Below are positions 2,338 to 6,463 of a DNA stretch of 6,996 bases, piece after piece. The stretch comes from a virus (lineage: Duplodnaviria; Heunggongvirae; Uroviricota; Caudoviricetes). Under the pieces are notes generated by a model. The model searched no databases and had not been told where the DNA came from. It was given only the letters and a program-made list of their open reading frames with translations. Every line of letters begins with the position of its first letter. Position 1 is the first letter of the stretch. The stretch is from the IMG/VR virus record IMGVR_UViG_2671180417_000012, positions 1 to 6,996 of that record. One strand, 5' to 3'. The position numbers were made by a program, and so were the translations under genes.

Positions 2338-3084
2338 TTACTTCACAACCCTCATATTGCTGACATTTGGACGCCAGCTATCCCAGTTAAACGTCACCCA
2401 TCGACCACCGTTCATGGTCATGCGGTCCATAATCCTCTCACCAAGAAGCGTACTCATTGCGGCATGATTCAGGTTTGTTAACATCCCGACACTGCACAGT
2501 GATGCTGTCCGGCGATCAATTATCTGGTGCAATACCACCTGCTCGTTTTTCGTCTCCCGCTGAACGCCTATTTCATCCAGGACCAGCAAATCAACCCCGC
2601 AAAGCTCCTGTAAAAATTTTTCCCCGGATTTGCCGTTGTCGTAGCTGTCATGCAACACGCTCATGACGTCAGACACGGTGACGATAATCACGCTGCGCCC
2701 CTTCACCATCAGCCGGTTGCCCATCGCCGCTGCAAGGTGATTTTTCCCGGTGCCGGTTTTACCGCTGAACACAAAATTCGTGCACCCGGTCATCAGTTCG
2801 TCAGCTATGGATTTGGCCTGGCTCAGCGCGTATTTTTGCCCGTCGTTCTGCACCTGATAATTTGCAAACGAGCATTTGCTGTGCAGAGGCTGGATGCCCG
2901 AACGATTCAGGATTTTTTCCACCCGCAACTGGCGATTCTGGCGGTTAATCTCCTCGCTGCGTTTTCGTCCTTCAGCAAGTTGCCATTCCCGCCACTCCTC
3001 CACCGTCCGGTACGGTGGAACCGACCCCTGTGGTGCAAGTCTGCGAATACGTTCAAGAACCCCAACTGCCGCAATGTTTTTCAT
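2338..3084 (-). CDS. DnaC-like replicative helicase loader (AAA+ ATPase; phage P-position gene)
   Basis: Walker A FSGKTGTGKNHLAAA and Walker B DLLVLDEIGVQ, plus GMLTNLN, LLGERIMDRM and WVTFNWDSWR, match the motifs of E. coli DnaC as I remember them. Size and position correspond to ydaV of the K-12 Rac prophage. Confidence 0.92.
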   Translation of the reverse strand: MKNIAAVGVLERIRRLAPQGSVPPYRTVEEWREWQLAEGRKRSEEINRQNRQLRVEKILNRSGIQPLHSKCSFANYQVQNDGQKYALSQAKSIADELMTGCTNFVFSGKTGTGKNHLAAAMGNRLMVKGRSVIIVTVSDVMSVLHDSYDNGKSGEKFLQELCGVDLLVLDEIGVQRETKNEQVVLHQIIDRRTASLCSVGMLTNLNHAAMSTLLGERIMDRMTMNGGRWVTFNWDSWRPNVSNMRVVK

Positions 3085-3090
3085 GACACG

Positions 3091-4032
3091 TCACCCCCTG
3101 AATCCCGGCGGTATTTCAGTGTCCGGTTCAGAAATGTGATTCACGCAACGCTGCGCGGGCGAACGCCCCAGGCGGATAACCAGTTCATCCCATTTTTCCC
3201 GGAGTTTTGCCGGACTCATGATGTTTTTTACCCAGAACGAATCCCGCTGGAGACGCCCAAACATTTCACAAATTTGTCTGTGAGTTCTGCCATCCAGCAT
3301 CCGCATTGTCCGCACGTCATTGGCCCATGCAGTCCAGTTGGGTTCTTTCGGTCTCGTGATCTCGCCATCATCGCTGGCCGCCTGCTCGTAAAGACTCACG
3401 ATTCGTCCCCAGACCCACTGTGCGCACACCAAATCTTCCTGACTTCCCCACTGGCGTTTTTTTGCACTGAACACAACCGCGTCAGGGTGTCGGGTTAAAA
3501 AATTCTGTTCAGCCGTCTGCGGGTCCGGTTGCGAAGCGTCCGGACAAGAAGATCTTTTATCTGACGGATCGGGGTCAATCATCGCCCCCCTAATCGGCAG
3601 TTTGTTATCAACAGTTGATCCATCAAAATTTGACGGGTCAACCGTTGAGGGGGCAATATTTGACGGGTCAACTGTTAACGGGTCATTTTTTGCCGGGCTA
3701 ATTTTTCTTTTCGGTTTATATGACTCACGCGCCGCCGCAGCAGCTGCTTCGAGTTTTTCCACATTAAGCCGATAGATATTGCTTACATTACGCCCACCGA
3801 CCTTACGCTCTTCCTTCGTCAGCCAGCCCTCTTTCGCCAGTTCTGCAATAGCCGATTTCACTGTGGATTCACTTCTTGCACCGATCTGACGCCGGATAGT
3901 TTCAATGGCAGGCCATGACACGCCCTCGTCATTGCTGTAGTCTGCAAGACGGGCCATAACCGCCACCCTGGATAAGATCATGCCGGTGAAGGCGCACCCT
4001 TCCCAGACAAGACCATGAAGCTTGCTGCTCAT
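3091..4032 (-). CDS. replication initiator, lambda-O-like (N-terminal HTH; origin iterons inside the gene)
   Basis: ATG at 4032-4030 after a G-run (an alternative GTG at 4047 gives the track's 318 aa). N-terminal HTH-like segment (SWPAIETIRRQIGARSESTVKSAIAELAKEGWL). An internal peptide repeat (TVDPSNIAPSTVDPSNFDGSTVD) corresponds to DNA iterons. Sits directly upstream of the DnaC-like gene. Confidence 0.85.
   Translation of the reverse strand: MSSKLHGLVWEGCAFTGMILSRVAVMARLADYSNDEGVSWPAIETIRRQIGARSESTVKSAIAELAKEGWLTKEERKVGGRNVSNIYRLNVEKLEAAAAAARESYKPKRKISPAKNDPLTVDPSNIAPSTVDPSNFDGSTVDNKLPIRGAMIDPDPSDKRSSCPDASQPDPQTAEQNFLTRHPDAVVFSAKKRQWGSQEDLVCAQWVWGRIVSLYEQAASDDGEITRPKEPNWTAWANDVRTMRMLDGRTHRQICEMFGRLQRDSFWVKNIMSPAKLREKWDELVIRLGRSPAQRCVNHISEPDTEIPPGFRG
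3606..3725. repeat. putative replication origin: three iterons followed by an AT-rich tract
   Basis: Palindromic cores TCAACaGTTGA (about 3608-3618), TCAACcGTTGA (about 3638-3648) and TCAACtGTTaA (about 3668-3678). The last two sit in a longer repeat, ATTTGACGGGTCAAC. The run ttttttgccgggctaatttttcttttcggtttatat follows at 3686-3725. This is the lambda ori layout inside O. Confidence 0.6.
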
Positions 4033-4054
4033 AAAACCCCCGAACACCGTGCTT

Positions 4055-4480
4055 TTAGTGCATCACCACAGCATTCCCTGCCGGGCCGCCGCGATTCATC
4101 TGGTCATACAAAACAACCGCTGACGCAACAAAATCATCGACATCCTTCACCAGCCGATCCCTCCGTTCGACGATCTCACGGTAATATTCAGAACTGTGGC
4201 TGCGCATACGGGCCACCAGCAAAGGCGGCATCGCCTTTTCGATCGCCGGTAACAGAGCCTGCATTTTTTCAACAGCATCAGGGGTGTCTTTCTCTACCCA
4301 GCGGAAAATTTTCTGGGTATTGCGAGCCAGGGCTTCCGGATGGCTGTCGTCATACAGTTCCGGGAACGTCATTCCCAGCTCGAAATACGCTTTGGTAATT
4401 TTCGCAGCCGGTACTTTTTCGCCGTCCGGATGCGCCCAGACATTCATCGCCATGCGGATGTGTTCATGCTTGATTTTCAT
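4055..4480 (-). CDS. ydaT: YdaT-like protein (Rac-prophage family; CII-position gene)
   Basis: ATG at 4480-4478 overlaps the stop of the upstream Cro-like gene (ATGA overlap), with GGAG 7 nt upstream. The sequence (MKIKHEHIRMAMNVWAHPDGE...) matches my recollection of E. coli Rac YdaT; the 141-aa length fits. Confidence 0.85.
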   Translation of the reverse strand: MKIKHEHIRMAMNVWAHPDGEKVPAAKITKAYFELGMTFPELYDDSHPEALARNTQKIFRWVEKDTPDAVEKMQALLPAIEKAMPPLLVARMRSHSSEYYREIVERRDRLVKDVDDFVASAVVLYDQMNRGGPAGNAVVMH

Positions 4481-4779
4481 GAATCAACTCCATCAGATAA
4501 GCATGCACTACAATCACCTTCAGCATGAACTACATGTGTTTGCCCCAAACGAATGCCGCTCGCATACTCAGGCCAAATAAGCTCCCAATCATGGGGTCGT
4601 AGCTCCGCCCTACTTACTTGGCCTTCCGTCGCAGATTCGATCATAAGGGCGCGGGTTGGAGATATAGCTGTTCGTCCAGACGCCATTTGCGATAAGTAAG
4701 ATGGCGATACACCAAGTCTGGCCGCGAATTTCTTAGCATCACCAACCCTTAATGATTTAATAAACTCTTTTAATGTCAT
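4477..4779 (-). CDS. ydaS: Cro-like HTH protein, YdaS family
   Basis: ATG at 4779-4777 with SD GAGGAAGG (reverse complement of 4782-4789). HTH segment AKKFAARLGVSPSYLSQMASGRTAISP. First gene of the minus operon, divergent from the regulator gene. Confidence 0.85.
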   Translation of the reverse strand: MTLKEFIKSLRVGDAKKFAARLGVSPSYLSQMASGRTAISPTRALMIESATEGQVSRAELRPHDWELIWPEYASGIRLGQTHVVHAEGDCSACLSDGVDS

Positions 4780-4876
4780 ACCTTCCTCGGTTTAGTGTTT
4801 TTTTGCGAGTTTAGTGTTTAATAAACCATTAAGTCAAGTATTTGCTTGTTTAGTGATTACTAAAGATAATTACCAC
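4780..4876. promoter_or_regulatory. divergent promoter/operator region (OR-like)
   Basis: Three direct repeats GTTTAGTG(T/A)TT at 4790-4800, 4809-4819 and 4848-4858. Plus-strand promoter: -35 TTGCTT (4842-4847), 17-nt spacer, -10 GATAAT (4865-4870), placing the start about at the ATG at 4877. Minus-strand promoter: -35 TTGACT (reverse complement of 4832-4837), 18-nt spacer, -10 TAAACT (reverse complement of 4808-4813). Confidence 0.6.
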
Positions 4877-5248
4877 ATGCAAAAAAAAGAAATTCGCCGT
4901 TTACGTCTCAAGGAGTGGTTTAAAGATAAAACTCTGCCACCCAAAGAGAAGAGCTACCTATCTCAACTAATGAGTGGGAGAGCCTCGTTTGGAGAAAAGG
5001 CTGCCAGAAGAATAGAGCAAACATACGGGATGCCGGAAGGGTATCTGGATGCGGAATACGCAGAACAACCGGGGGTTTCTCCACCACATGCAGGGTTAAC
5101 GTCTAATCAACTGGAATTATTGCAGATTTTTTCAGCCTTCCCTGAGGATGAGCAACGCCAGATAATCAGCGAGTTAAAGCAGAAAAAAGAATCAATGGAA
5201 GATCTCATAGCGAGATGGATTGCGGCGCAAAAATGCCGCCGCGCCTGA
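4877..5248 (+). CDS. paaR2: HTH transcriptional regulator (PaaR2-like; occupies the repressor position)
   Basis: ATG at 4877 with no SD, 7 nt after a GATAAT -10 (leaderless, like lambda cI from PRM). HTH segment SYLSQLMSGRASFGEKAARRIEQTYGM. The track's upstream GTG at 4814 would overlap the operators and is not preferred. The name is from memory of the O157:H7 paaR2-paaA2-parE2 locus. Confidence 0.8.
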   Translation: MQKKEIRRLRLKEWFKDKTLPPKEKSYLSQLMSGRASFGEKAARRIEQTYGMPEGYLDAEYAEQPGVSPPHAGLTSNQLELLQIFSAFPEDEQRQIISELKQKKESMEDLIARWIAAQKCRRA

Positions 5249-5268
5249 GTTATAAAACCGGAGGAAAC

Positions 5269-5460
5269 ATGAATAGAGCCCTTTCACCAATGGTTTCTGA
5301 ATTTGAAACCATTGAACAAGAAAACAGTTACAACGAATGGCTGCGTGCGAAAGTAGCAACGAGCCTTGCAGATCCGCGCCCAGCAATTCCCCATGACGAA
5401 GTTGAGCGCAGAATGGCAGAACGCTTTGCTAAGATGCGCAAGGAACGGAGCAAGCAGTAA
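5269..5460 (+). CDS. paaA2: small antitoxin of a ParE-type toxin-antitoxin module (PaaA2-like, 63 aa)
   Basis: ATG at 5269 preceded by GGAGGA (5260-5265). 63-aa charged, helix-prone protein, immediately upstream of the ParE-like gene with a 1-nt gap (TAA 5458-5460, ATG 5462). The track's upstream start at 5215 overlaps the regulator gene and is not preferred. Confidence 0.8.
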   Translation: MNRALSPMVSEFETIEQENSYNEWLRAKVATSLADPRPAIPHDEVERRMAERFAKMRKERSKQ

Positions 5461-5461
5461 A

Positions 5462-5740
5462 ATGTTACCCGTGTTATGGCTTGAAAGCGCAGATACCGAC
5501 CTAGATGATATAACTAGTTATATTGCTCGTTTCGACATAGATGCGGCTGAACGCTTATGGCAGCGATTAAGGGGTTGTGTGCTGCCGTTATCCGAACATC
5601 CGTATTTATACCCACCAAGCGACAGAGTACCTGGCTTGCGTGAGATTGTAGCCCACCCTAACTATATAATTCTATACCGCGTAACAACATCAAGCGTTGA
5701 AGTAGTAAACGTGATCCACGCAAGACGCCAGTTTCCCTAA
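5462..5740 (+). CDS. parE2: ParE/RelE-superfamily toxin (ParE2-like, 92 aa)
   Basis: ATG at 5462 (MLPVLWLESADTD...). Size, composition and conserved C-terminal region (HPNYIILYRV...VEVVNVIHARRQFP) fit the ParE family. Operon partner of the small antitoxin. The track's longer start at 5366 would overlap the antitoxin by 95 nt. Confidence 0.85.
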   Translation: MLPVLWLESADTDLDDITSYIARFDIDAAERLWQRLRGCVLPLSEHPYLYPPSDRVPGLREIVAHPNYIILYRVTTSSVEVVNVIHARRQFP

Positions 5741-5755
5741 CTTTCACTACCAATA

Positions 5756-5808
5756 GAAACATAACAACCGCAACGACTTTATCAAAAGCGTTGTGTTTGT
5801 TATGTTCC
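5756..5808 (+). terminator. long imperfect inverted repeat, possible terminator after the toxin gene
   Basis: About 18 bp pair between 5757-5775 and 5789-5806 (one mismatch, one G-U), with a 13-nt loop. A T-rich segment GGTTTAGTTTTT follows a few nt later. Begins 16 nt after the parE2-like stop. Confidence 0.4.
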
Positions 5809-5855
5809 GCGGTTTAGTTTTTACTTGACTTAAGTTTAATATTCATTAAACCAAA
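5809..5855 (+). promoter_or_regulatory. putative PL-like promoter with operator copy (OL-like)
   Basis: CGGTTTAGT (5810-5818) repeats the operator motif of the 4780-4876 region. TACTTGACTTAA (5822-5833) is identical to the context of the -35 TTGACT of the minus-strand promoter at 4832-4837 and contains the palindrome ACTTAAGT. No confident -10 (best TAAACC at 16-nt spacing). Confidence 0.4.
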
Positions 5856-6170
5856 AATACCAACCCACCCCGCCCCACAGAACGCAGGGAAATACTTCGA
5901 GTTACCCGGCAGTGGTCAGGGGTTAAGTAGCCAGCCCGAGGCGTATGAACATGACGGCAGGGTTCAACTTTAATAACTATGCAGCAGGTTTTTGTTCCGC
6001 TACCCCGGCGTTAAGGGGAAACAGAGGGTTTCTCAGTGGGCGAAGTCAAACATCAGAATGGAAGGCATCCCGGGATCGGCAAAGAAGCAGCAATGGCGCT
6101 TTATATTGACATCAGCGCCATTGCAGGACAGGTAAGAGTTATCAGAGCGGTAACTAAGCGGTATGCGCCT

Positions 6171-6371
6171 TTACTTCAGAAAGTCTCTGGTGAGTGCACC
6201 GAAGATATTGTCAACGATTTCGTCATCGAACTGCGAGGACTCATCTTCAGTTACAAGGTGACCACAATTTTTGCAGATGGCTCCCGCGAAACTGTCAGAG
6301 CCCTGCGGCTTAAAGGATGTGTCAAAGACTTCGCCACCACATTCTGGGCAAGAAAACTTGATTGTATTCAT
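6171..6371 (-). CDS. zinc-ribbon mini-protein (66 aa, CPxCG...CxxCG)
   Basis: ATG at 6371-6369 with SD GAGAGG/GAGGAA 8 nt upstream. Two CxxCG knuckles (CPECGG, CKNCGH) 17 residues apart, and an acidic C-terminal tail. Codon usage looks more E. coli-like than that of the overlapping plus-strand ORF 6036..6392, which uses AGA three times. Confidence 0.6.
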   Translation of the reverse strand: MNTIKFSCPECGGEVFDTSFKPQGSDSFAGAICKNCGHLVTEDESSQFDDEIVDNIFGALTRDFLK

Positions 6372-6463
6372 AACCAATTTCCTCTCGAGTAACAGACCCC
6401 TCAGAGGATACCACCTCGCCTGACGTGGTTAAAAGCAGGCAACGCTAACCACAAGGAGCCGAC

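Follow-up and report, generated by a model that had tools for sequence, protein, structure and literature searches.

The repeats on either side of the paaR2-paaA2-parE2 operon are, with a probability of about 0.93, the OR and OL operators of the immunity switch of CP-933P/Sp12. The DNA stretch analysed here (6,996 nucleotides, hereafter the window) is the immunity region of this cryptic lambdoid prophage of E. coli O157:H7. The first-pass annotation had read the repeats as an OR/OL pair around a repressor operon, with the regulator controlling both outward promoters. This reading is correct but already published: Jurenas et al. 2021 (mBio, PMC8630535) demonstrated by EMSA and DNase I footprinting that PaaR2 and YdaS bind the 97-bp divergent region, and described transcription start sites, repression of three promoters followed with gfp fusions (PR, PRM and PL) and bistability. 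Since these binding and reporter data of 2021 already established the sites, the promoters and how PaaR2 and YdaS regulate them, the result has little weight as a discovery. It does show that a real OR/OL architecture can be recovered by a reader using the sequence alone.

The identity of the locus rests on several comparisons. O55:H7 and O157:H7 chromosomes are 99.8% identical to the window, and ydaT and ydaS lie on one strand with paaR2-paaA2-parE2 on the opposite one. Mapping onto the published fragments was done through primer sequences: 14 of the 15 primers of PMC8630535 that we tested map to the window with 0 mismatches, and paaR2, ydaS, ydaT and the PRE region agree exactly with the published primers. 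A Rfam scan of the whole window with E up to 1 gave two weak, chance-level matches and none in OR, OL or the PL leader.

Genes of the immunity region

On the minus strand, ydaS (4477-4779), which is transcribed from PR, encodes a Cro-like HTH regulator (Pfam YdaS_toxin 3.3e-12, HTH_3 6e-7). It is followed by ydaT (4055-4480; Pfam YdaT_toxin 2.6e-9; 'toxin YdaT family protein' in RefSeq), a CII-like activator whose product acts as a CII analogue (PMC8630535, PMC9986795). The YdaT operator OM, TTGATTTTCATGAATCAA, is found at 4470-4487, where ydaS and ydaT meet within the PRE region, and matches exactly the published TTGATT-N6-AATCAA site (PMC9986795).

On the plus strand, paaR2 (4877-5248), the antitoxin gene paaA2 (5269-5460; Pfam PaaA2 1e-19; relB in RefSeq) and the toxin gene parE2 (5462-5740; Pfam ParE_toxin 1.9e-16) follow each other at distances of 20 nt and 1 nt, forming a PaaR-PaaA-ParE three-component module. 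PaaR2, a CI-like repressor, is 123 aa long; its N-terminal domain is of the HTH type, and its short C-terminal domain serves oligomerisation. As it has no match in Pfam, its identity was taken from PDB and PHROGs: in an alignment over residues 1-71, the first 66 are identical to PDB 7NKV/8C3K ('Phage repressor protein CI'), and the protein matches phrog_5736, transcriptional regulator. A literature search with the PDB codes 7NKV, 8C3K and 8C3L found no relevant paper. The S24/LexA-type autocleavage domain is absent from PaaR2, as judged from its length of 123 aa and from Pfam, and the missing peptidase motif was also remarked in PMC8630535. PaaR2 is therefore not induced by RecA. The motif SYLSQ(L/M)xSG is common to PaaR and YdaS.

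A strong hairpin is formed by an inverted repeat on the plus strand between the parE2 stop codon and OL (5758-5806). Its predicted stability is -25.1 kcal/mol (z -5.5), and none of 200 shuffles was equally stable. Placed like lambda t_imm, it may be the terminator of the operon, although no T-run adjoins it.

Promoters and operators in OR

OR is the intergenic region bounded by the starts of ydaS (4779, -) and paaR2 (4877, +). It spans 97 bp (4780-4876), the length given in the first-pass annotation, and is identical to the published EMSA fragment, whose primers FL1 and FL2 map at 4780-4799 and 4855-4876 with 0 mismatches. Footprinting revealed about 78 bp protected by PaaR2 and about 65 bp by YdaS, and four 18-bp palindromes with the consensus half-site GTTTAGTAA were described (PMC8630535). 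The organization is that of a lambdoid switch, with back-to-back divergent promoters and several dyads overlapping both of them. PR933P (4808-4837, minus strand), which drives ydaS-ydaT, was located by promoter scan, with a -35 TTGACT at 4837-4832, an 18-nt spacer and a -10 TAAACT at 4813-4808; its AGTTTA and GTCAAG elements are conserved in the family. PRM933P (4842-4877, plus strand) was read from the sequence, with a -35 TTGCTT at 4842-4847, a -10 GATAAT at 4865-4870 and transcription beginning with the first base of the paaR2 ATG. Published 5' RACE mapped the starts of both promoters in agreement with these predicted positions, and 5' RACE, N-terminal sequencing (MQKKE) and mass spectrometry showed that paaR2 is leaderless (PMC8630535).

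The repeat GTTTAGTGWTT occurs without mismatch at 4790-4800, 4809-4819 and 4848-4858 and with one mismatch at 5812-5822, right of the toxin gene, always on the plus strand. The positions given in the first-pass annotation thus hold, and the repeat lies far above chance: these four matches compare with 0.28 expected, and none of 200 shuffles reached four. The 12-mer TACTTGACTTAA, also noticed before as common to the PL-side element and the minus-strand promoter, is found at 5822-5833 (+) and 4829-4840 (-), two matches for 0.01 expected and a count not reached in 200 shuffles.

The 4809 copy overlaps the PR -10, as had been proposed. It forms part of a dyad over the PR -10 and spacer (4809-4826, IR3 of the published work), GTTTAGTGTTTAATAAAC, which matches the pattern GTTTAnTnnnnAnTAAAC at 12/12 with halves at 7/9 and 8/9, and which keeps its place at -67/-68 relative to the repressor ATG across the family. 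Again as first described, the 4848 copy occupies the gap between the -35 and -10 of PRM, and belongs to a dyad in the PRM spacer (4848-4865, IR1), GTTTAGTGATTACTAAAG, that matches at 11/12 with both halves at 8/9 and is kept at -29 across the family. Between these dyads, a weak site (4828-4845, IR2) covers the back-to-back -35 elements; its halves match at only 6/9 and 2/9, and its core GTCAAGTATTTGCTT hardly varies across the family. The 4790 copy had been placed over the Shine-Dalgarno sequence and 5' UTR of ydaS. It does lie inside the 5' UTR, but is adjacent to the Shine-Dalgarno sequence GAGGAAGG, directly upstream of it rather than over it. It is a lone half-site (4790-4807, IR4), with a left half GTTTAGTGT matching at 7/9 and a right half at 3/9, and is not conserved beyond the E. 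coli PaaR2/PaaR1-like clade.

OL and the PL allele of the window

Beyond the repressor operon, a second operator cluster lies over an outward promoter, as in lambdoid switches. PL933P (5825-5852, plus strand) has a -35 TTGACT at 5825-5830, a 16-nt spacer and a -10 at 5847-5852. A distal dyad covers its -35 (5812-5829), GTTTAGTTTTTACTTGAC, matching at 10/12, and a proximal dyad covers its spacer and -10 (5834-5851), GTTTAATATTCATTAAAC, matching at 12/12; in both, each half matches at 7/9. The proximal dyad is the strongest of OL and was absent from the first-pass annotation. With the dyad pattern, which was derived from the family itself, the window gives matches only at 4809, 4848, 5812 and 5834, a count that none of 300 shuffles reached. 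A possible third OL dyad at 5790-5807 was rejected, its halves matching at just 5/9 and 3/9. In the family, GTTTA-N6-ACTT(G/T)AC is conserved upstream of PL, and past the repressor cassette the related loci retain a dyad with TAAACT after it, so that the PL architecture reads ACTT(G/T)AC, dyad, TAAACT.

The published PL933P-gfp fragment corresponds to 5741-5858, and PaaR2 and YdaS both lowered expression from PL about 100-fold (PMC8630535); these data refer to the EDL933 allele, which is unlike the window at three positions within primer R-PL (5841, 5844 and 5852). The difference at 5852 turns TAAACT into TAAACC: the PL -10 is TAAACC in the window versus TAAACT in each of the other 41 distinct close relatives, suggesting that PL may be weak or inactive here. 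The exact PL allele of the window had no match in viral contigs or metagenomes, and none of 591 complete E. coli genomes carrying the locus holds an identical copy, the best reaching 97.3%.

The private substitutions of the window number only two, both in the PL -10 region. In RNA folding, neither strand of a conserved block of 165 nt downstream of PL was more stable than shuffles (z +1.4 and +1.5), which leaves a structured leader RNA unsupported.

Dyads, direct repeats and the reach of the operators

We compared the locus with 19 non-redundant distant loci (100.5 kb), nearly all related loci carrying a divergent YdaS-like gene. The same family-derived pattern found 40 dyads matching at at least 11/12 in these distant loci, of which 22 adjoin the repressor start and 18 lie 400-2400 nt downstream, with none elsewhere; shuffles of the loci gave a mean of 0.4. 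The frequency matrix of the half-site, built from 72 sites, reads GTTTA(G/T)T(A/g)(A/t).

These data bear on how the regulator reads its operators. The first-pass annotation had described a direct repeat rather than a dyad, and this point finds no support: each of the 4809, 4848 and 5812 copies makes up the left half of an 18-bp dyad (half-site GTTTAGTAA), and PMC8630535 gives 18-bp palindromes with the same half-site. A regulator reading tandem head-to-tail GTTTAGTG(T/A)TT units, unlike dyad-binding CI proteins, would fit the common plus-strand orientation of the three OR copies and the OL copy, with GTTTAG in OR occurring 3 times on the plus strand and 0 on the minus strand. PMC8630535 also notes that direct and inverted repeats are both conserved and leaves the contact sequence open, its authors considering both inverted and 'pseudosymmetrical'/direct repeats as possible contacts of PaaR2 and YdaS. 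However, every conserved copy has an inverted partner half 11 nt away, with halves at 7-8/9, and the 4790 copy lacks conservation. Read on the other strand, the PR operator of the window is moreover identical to GTTTATTAAACACTAAAC, the most frequent version in the family; it has been flipped while keeping its position over the PR -10, as expected of a symmetric site. GTTTAG half-sites occur on both strands in 11/19 distant loci, whereas at least two direct, tandem plus-strand copies are found in just 1/19. The all-direct arrangement is, as far as the compared sequences go, peculiar to CP-933P, and we consider a direct-repeat operator improbable. Searchable literature yielded no single-site operator mutants and no protein-DNA structures; the conservation pattern points to the dyad as the probable recognition unit.

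The repeats could alternatively be mere shared promoter sequence, PR and PL being duplicated promoters whose repeats have no separate operator function. The -10 TAAACT and the -35 ACTTGAC do themselves belong to the repeats, and the 12-mer identity could stem from a common promoter ancestry. But the 4848-4865 dyad, conserved to the same degree, belongs to another promoter, the weak PRM, whose spacer it occupies, and protein binding and regulation were demonstrated by the published footprinting and repression experiments (PMC8630535). This makes shared promoter sequence the least credible of the explanations.

In the favoured explanation, PaaR2 (CI-like) and YdaS (Cro-like) both bind the OR and OL operators, probably as 18-bp dyads with the same half-site. 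In OR, the 4809-4826 dyad lies over the -10 and spacer of PR, which drives ydaS-ydaT, and the 4848-4865 dyad occupies the spacer of PRM, the promoter of the leaderless paaR2-paaA2-parE2 transcript, with the weak site between them and the lone half-site beside them. In OL, about 1 kb away past the toxin gene, the two dyads lie over the PL -35 and over the PL spacer and -10. At both outward promoters, the -10 TAAACT shares its TAAAC with the outer edge of an operator half-site, its last T being a flanking base; this overlap, together with the position of the -35 in the conserved ACTTGAC, explains why PR and PL share the 12-mer. At low levels PaaR2 represses PR and PL and stimulates PRM, and at high levels it shuts PRM too, while YdaS occupies the same DNA with the opposite preference, leading to a bistable switch. 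The predicted control of both outward promoters is borne out by the published repression of PR933P, PRM933P and PL933P (PMC8630535). Octameric PaaR2 probably loops OR to OL.

The system resembles that of phage lambda in its divergent PR/PRM promoters with overlapping dyad operators, its second operator set over PL past the repressor operon, its leaderless repressor mRNA and its accessory genes between repressor and OL (rexAB in lambda, paaA2-parE2 in CP-933P). The OR-OL distance of about 1.0 kb is shorter than the roughly 2.3 kb of lambda, the half-site is unrelated and PaaR2 has no S24 autocleavage domain. As in lambda, the Cro-like protein shares its sites with the repressor, which assembles into octamers, but OR holds four evenly spaced 18-bp sites instead of three (PMC8630535). 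The locus CP-933P/Sp12 described there is the same one, with OR at 4780-4876, the half-site and the 18-bp palindromes identical. Qin DicA/DicC and Rac RacR/YdaS/YdaT of E. coli K-12 are likewise immunity regions of this class, that of cryptic lambdoid prophages. In CP-933P the genes further downstream include ydfC and dicB, paaR2 occupies the exact position of dicA (PMC8630535) and the Rac YdaT box is nearly identical to that of CP-933P, while the Qin and Rac repressors differ in their DNA-binding domains and operators. The racR-ydaS intergenic region is an additional target of YdaT in Rac, but in CP-933P YdaT shows no binding between paaR2 and ydaS (PMC11879457). Like type II toxin-antitoxin systems, paaA2-parE2 is a co-transcribed, transcriptionally repressed ParE-type pair, but the PaaA2 antitoxin has no DNA-binding domain, and control is exerted at phage operators by the prophage repressor and the Cro-like protein rather than by the toxin-antitoxin complex (PMC8630535).

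Across related loci, the N-terminal domain of the repressor is 62-88% identical and the C-terminal domain is swapped; Peptidase_S24 is present in relatives from Yersinia, Erwinia and Mycoavidus that share this N-terminal domain. A tblastn comparison of the PaaR2 N-terminal domain with deposited phages gave matches at 65% or more only in phage Evi, one Klebsiella phage and two Burkholderia phages, with one further weak match at 29% and no classical characterised phage among the matches. The comparison adds modestly to PMC8630535 in that the unit conserved across distant relatives is the 18-bp dyad, not the tandem repeat, and that the same operators are used by repressors whether or not these carry an S24 cleavage domain. 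A wider joint reading, to which we give somewhat less than even odds, is that of an old, portable operator code. A switch core of about 65 bp (PR dyad, GTCAAGTATTTGCTT, PRM dyad), with matching PL/OL and the PaaR N-terminal domain, would have remained almost unchanged among prophages of Gamma- and Betaproteobacteria, while the repressor C-termini would have been exchanged for S24 autocleaving, short oligomerising or other domains. Such swaps would wire the same operators to different induction inputs, and CP-933P would be a non-SOS-inducible derivative with a flipped PR operator. Both private substitutions in the PL -10 region would fit selection silencing the early-left operon (ydfC, dicB and neighbours). 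The change in the PL -10 could bear on whether early-left genes (dicB region) remain expressible in the source strain.

Locus identity and published work

RefSeq annotation and Pfam place a YdaT family gene (4055-4480) and a YdaS/HTH gene (4477-4779) on the minus strand, and a PaaA2-type antitoxin (5269-5460) and a ParE toxin (5462-5740) on the plus strand, with a zinc-ribbon gene, ydfC and dicB past the toxin gene. The plus-strand regulator (4877-5248, 123 aa) is 'hypothetical' in RefSeq; its residues 1-66 are identical to PDB 7NKV/8C3K, 'Phage repressor protein CI'. Around the operator repeats, 1.7 kb shares 99.7-99.8% identity with chromosomes of E. coli O157:H7 and O55:H7, and 98.1% with Escherichia phage Evi. 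These features identify the locus as the immunity region (paaR2-paaA2-parE2 / ydaS-ydaT) of cryptic prophage CP-933P, called Sp12 in strain Sakai. Within ydaT, six substitutions relative to strain LSU61 fall within 34 nt (4292-4325), which looks like a small recombination patch. Further right, phage Evi and RefSeq each annotate one of two overlapping ORFs on opposite strands: a 118-aa ORF at 6036-6392 (+) in phage Evi, matching phrog_21318, and a 68-aa zinc-ribbon 'ECs_2282 family' ORF at 6171-6377 (-) in RefSeq, matching phrog_4852.

Exactly these sequences were studied by Jurenas et al. (2021, mBio, PMC8630535). The start sites of PR933P (PR, ydaS-ydaT) and PRM933P (PRM, paaR2-paaA2-parE2) were determined by 5' RACE, paaR2 was found to be leaderless (N-terminus MQKKE), and EMSA shifts and DNase I footprints were obtained on the 97-bp divergent region (OR), covering ~78 bp for PaaR2 and ~65 bp for YdaS. 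Four 18-bp palindromes at even spacing, with the half-site GTTTAGTAA, were described by the authors, as were 'pseudosymmetrical' operators OR1-3. A third promoter, PL933P (PL), with OL1-3, lies past the toxin-antitoxin genes and has a -35 and a -10 identical to those of PR933P. PR, PRM and PL are repressed by PaaR2 and by YdaS (PL ~100-fold), PRM is stimulated by low PaaR2, and bistability was demonstrated (PMC8630535). Fourteen of the 15 published primers tested match the window without mismatch, placing the EMSA fragment at 4780-4876, the footprint fragment at 4738-4926, the start of the PL reporter at 5741 and the immunity clone at 4033-6035. Because the primers map there, the experiments proposed by the first-pass annotation had already been done on the same fragments. 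Its reading of an OR/OL pair flanking a repressor operon, with the regulator controlling both outward promoters, is correct according to the published binding and reporter data (PMC8630535); the arrangement is already known and experimentally established.

Operators and promoters

The repeats reported from the sequence were recovered: GTTTAGTGWTT occurs exactly at 4790, 4809 and 4848 and with one mismatch at 5812, always on the plus strand (4 matches vs 0.28 expected; 0/200 shuffles with four). The divergent region indeed measures 97 bp, between the minus-strand gene start at 4779 and the plus-strand regulator start at 4877, and the shared 12-mer TACTTGACTTAA is present at 5822-5833 (+) and 4829-4840 (-), vs 0.01 expected. 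We then scored every 18-mer of the 7-kb window against GTTTAnTnnnnAnTAAAC. Only four dyads were found, at 4809 (12/12), 4848 (11/12), 5812 (10/12) and 5834 (12/12), counts matched by none of 300 shuffles. Both halves of each of these sites agree with the published half-site at 7-8 of 9 positions. Three of the repeat copies (4809, 4848 and 5812) thus represent left halves of dyads; the fourth, at 4790, with 7/9 in its left half vs 3/9 in its right, is a lone half-site. Matches in the segment 4828-4845 are weak (6/9 and 2/9). The first-pass annotation had overlooked the best OL site, 5834-5851.

A promoter scan placed PR on the minus strand (TTGACT 4837-4832, 18-nt spacer, TAAACT 4813-4808). PRM (+) reads TTGCTT 4842-4847, a 17-nt spacer and GATAAT 4865-4870, seven bases from the A of the ATG at 4877, and PL (+) consists of TTGACT 5825-5830, a 16-nt spacer and a -10 at 5847-5852. 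At PR and PL a half-site shares its outer end (...TAAAC, with one flanking T) with the -10 TAAACT, and ACTTGAC contains the -35; this accounts for their common 12-mer. From this anatomy, occupation of 4809-4826 would block the PR -10, that of 4848-4865 would block PRM, and that of 5812-5829 together with 5834-5851 would block the PL -35 and -10. Octameric PaaR2 might bridge OR and OL, across the 1025 bp between the starts of the PR dyad (4809) and the proximal OL dyad (5834).

A search for PaaR2 relatives yielded 27 loci from other species and 80 viral contigs. Relatives of only 45-57% overall identity, from Xenorhabdus, Photorhabdus, Yersinia, Erwinia, Morganella, Massilia, Mycoavidus and others, keep a nearly constant upstream core, AGTTTAttaAacACTAAAC, 5 nt, GTCAAGTATTTGCTT, then GTTTAGnnnTTACTAAtC, with the -10 positioned for a leaderless or near-leaderless start. 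The PL layout (GTTTA-N6-ACTT(G/T)AC, dyad, TAAACT) recurs 444 to 2293 nt downstream of their repressor cassette, at a distance set by the cargo. At a threshold of 11/12 or better, 19 non-redundant distant loci (100.5 kb) hold 40 dyads, 22 beside the repressor start, 18 at 400-2400 nt downstream and none elsewhere (shuffle mean 0.4). Built from 72 distinct sites, a half-site frequency matrix reads GTTTA(G/T)T(A/g)(A/t), the same as the published consensus. The operators are thus conserved in all homologues keeping the regulator's DNA-binding domain, the opposite of the loss that the first-pass annotation named as refuting; the exception is the 4790 copy, which is confined to the E. coli clade.

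The first-pass annotation took the operator for a direct repeat rather than a dyad, and the OR of the window does carry GTTTAG three times on the plus strand and never on the minus strand. This reading is not supported: three of the four copies are dyad left halves, and among the relatives GTTTAG lies on both strands in 11/19, with at least two tandem copies in only 1/19. Moreover, the PR operator of the window, GTTTAGTGTTTAATAAAC, and the most frequent version in the family, GTTTATTAAACACTAAAC, are exact reverse complements of each other; the window's site has been flipped while retaining its position over the PR -10, as expected of a symmetric site. The tandem look of the repeats is a CP-933P peculiarity. 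Jurenas et al. allow for contact with either type of repeat (PMC8630535); the comparison of relatives favours the dyad as the contacted unit.

PL allele and DNA flanking OL

The window departs from the published reverse PL primer at three positions. In an alignment of 42 distinct close relatives, window included, over 4477-6177, its only private bases are at 5844 and 5852 (C vs T in the other 41 sequences). Both lie within the PL-proximal operator and -10; position 5852, the last -10 base (TAAACT to TAAACC), is T in every other relative, near or distant. Searches of viral contigs, metagenomes and 591 complete E. coli genomes turned up no exact copy of this allele. Either a sequencing error or a promoter-down change may explain it; a genuine change would be expected to weaken PL.

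Directly 3' of parE2 and 5' of OL lies a long imperfect hairpin (5758-5806, 23-nt arms; -25.1 kcal/mol, z -5.5). It is placed like t_imm in lambda but lacks an adjacent T-run, and might end the operon. Between hairpin and OL, 5801-5811 is hypervariable among close relatives (8/11 columns varying; mean 7.3 minor alleles per column vs ~0.2 in flanking genes; nearly all C/T or G/A), and no compensating changes were seen in the hairpin left arm. This could stem from recurrent recombination or from a hotspot of mutation or deamination.

A 165-nt block (5857-6021) begins ~5 nt past the PL -10, where PL transcripts are expected to start. It is 87-97% identical in E. coli phages whose immunity modules differ and 74.5% in an Actinobacillus phage, and it marks the right-hand boundary of the swappable immunity cassette. 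It opens with a C-rich, G-poor tract, ACCAACCCACCCCGCCCCACA, and RNA folding found no stable fold in it. A small ORF (5945-6109) has a GAGG Shine-Dalgarno, and its first 25 residues match phrog_37620.

Repressor and YdaS proteins across the family

The divergent gene is YdaS-like at nearly all related loci. YdaS-like proteins and the repressor have the motif SYLSQ(M/L)xSG in common, which fits both proteins reading one half-site. At L081 (2832-3353) and the related loci L082-L092, a second regulator gene stands between paaR and paaA/parE, with PaaR at 71-74% identity. Its product combines an XRE-type HTH N-terminal domain with a PaaR2-like C-terminal domain (…ITPNQKELLQTFEAFPEEDQQQMLKDMKEKKEAMDRIVARWLAAQ), so that it and PaaR may share an oligomerisation domain.

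The N-terminal 60 residues of the repressor are 62-88% identical across the family, with KEKSYLSQL(M/I)xGxxSFGE(K/R)AARR(I/L)E nearly invariant, and the C-terminal part is only 6-27% identical outside the E. coli clade. Yersinia, Erwinia and Mycoavidus relatives have Peptidase_S24 in this part and are thus classical autocleavable CI repressors on the same operators. At loci L017, L020, L022 and L027 (repressor genes at ~2501-3166), such a C-terminal domain goes with the same N-terminal domain and the same operators. Pfam detected no Peptidase_S24 domain in PaaR2, as also reported in PMC8630535. Our small additions to the published work are family-wide operator conservation, the private PL allele and C-terminal domain swapping; the last implies that SOS-inducible and non-inducible repressors have been domain-swapped on one operator code.
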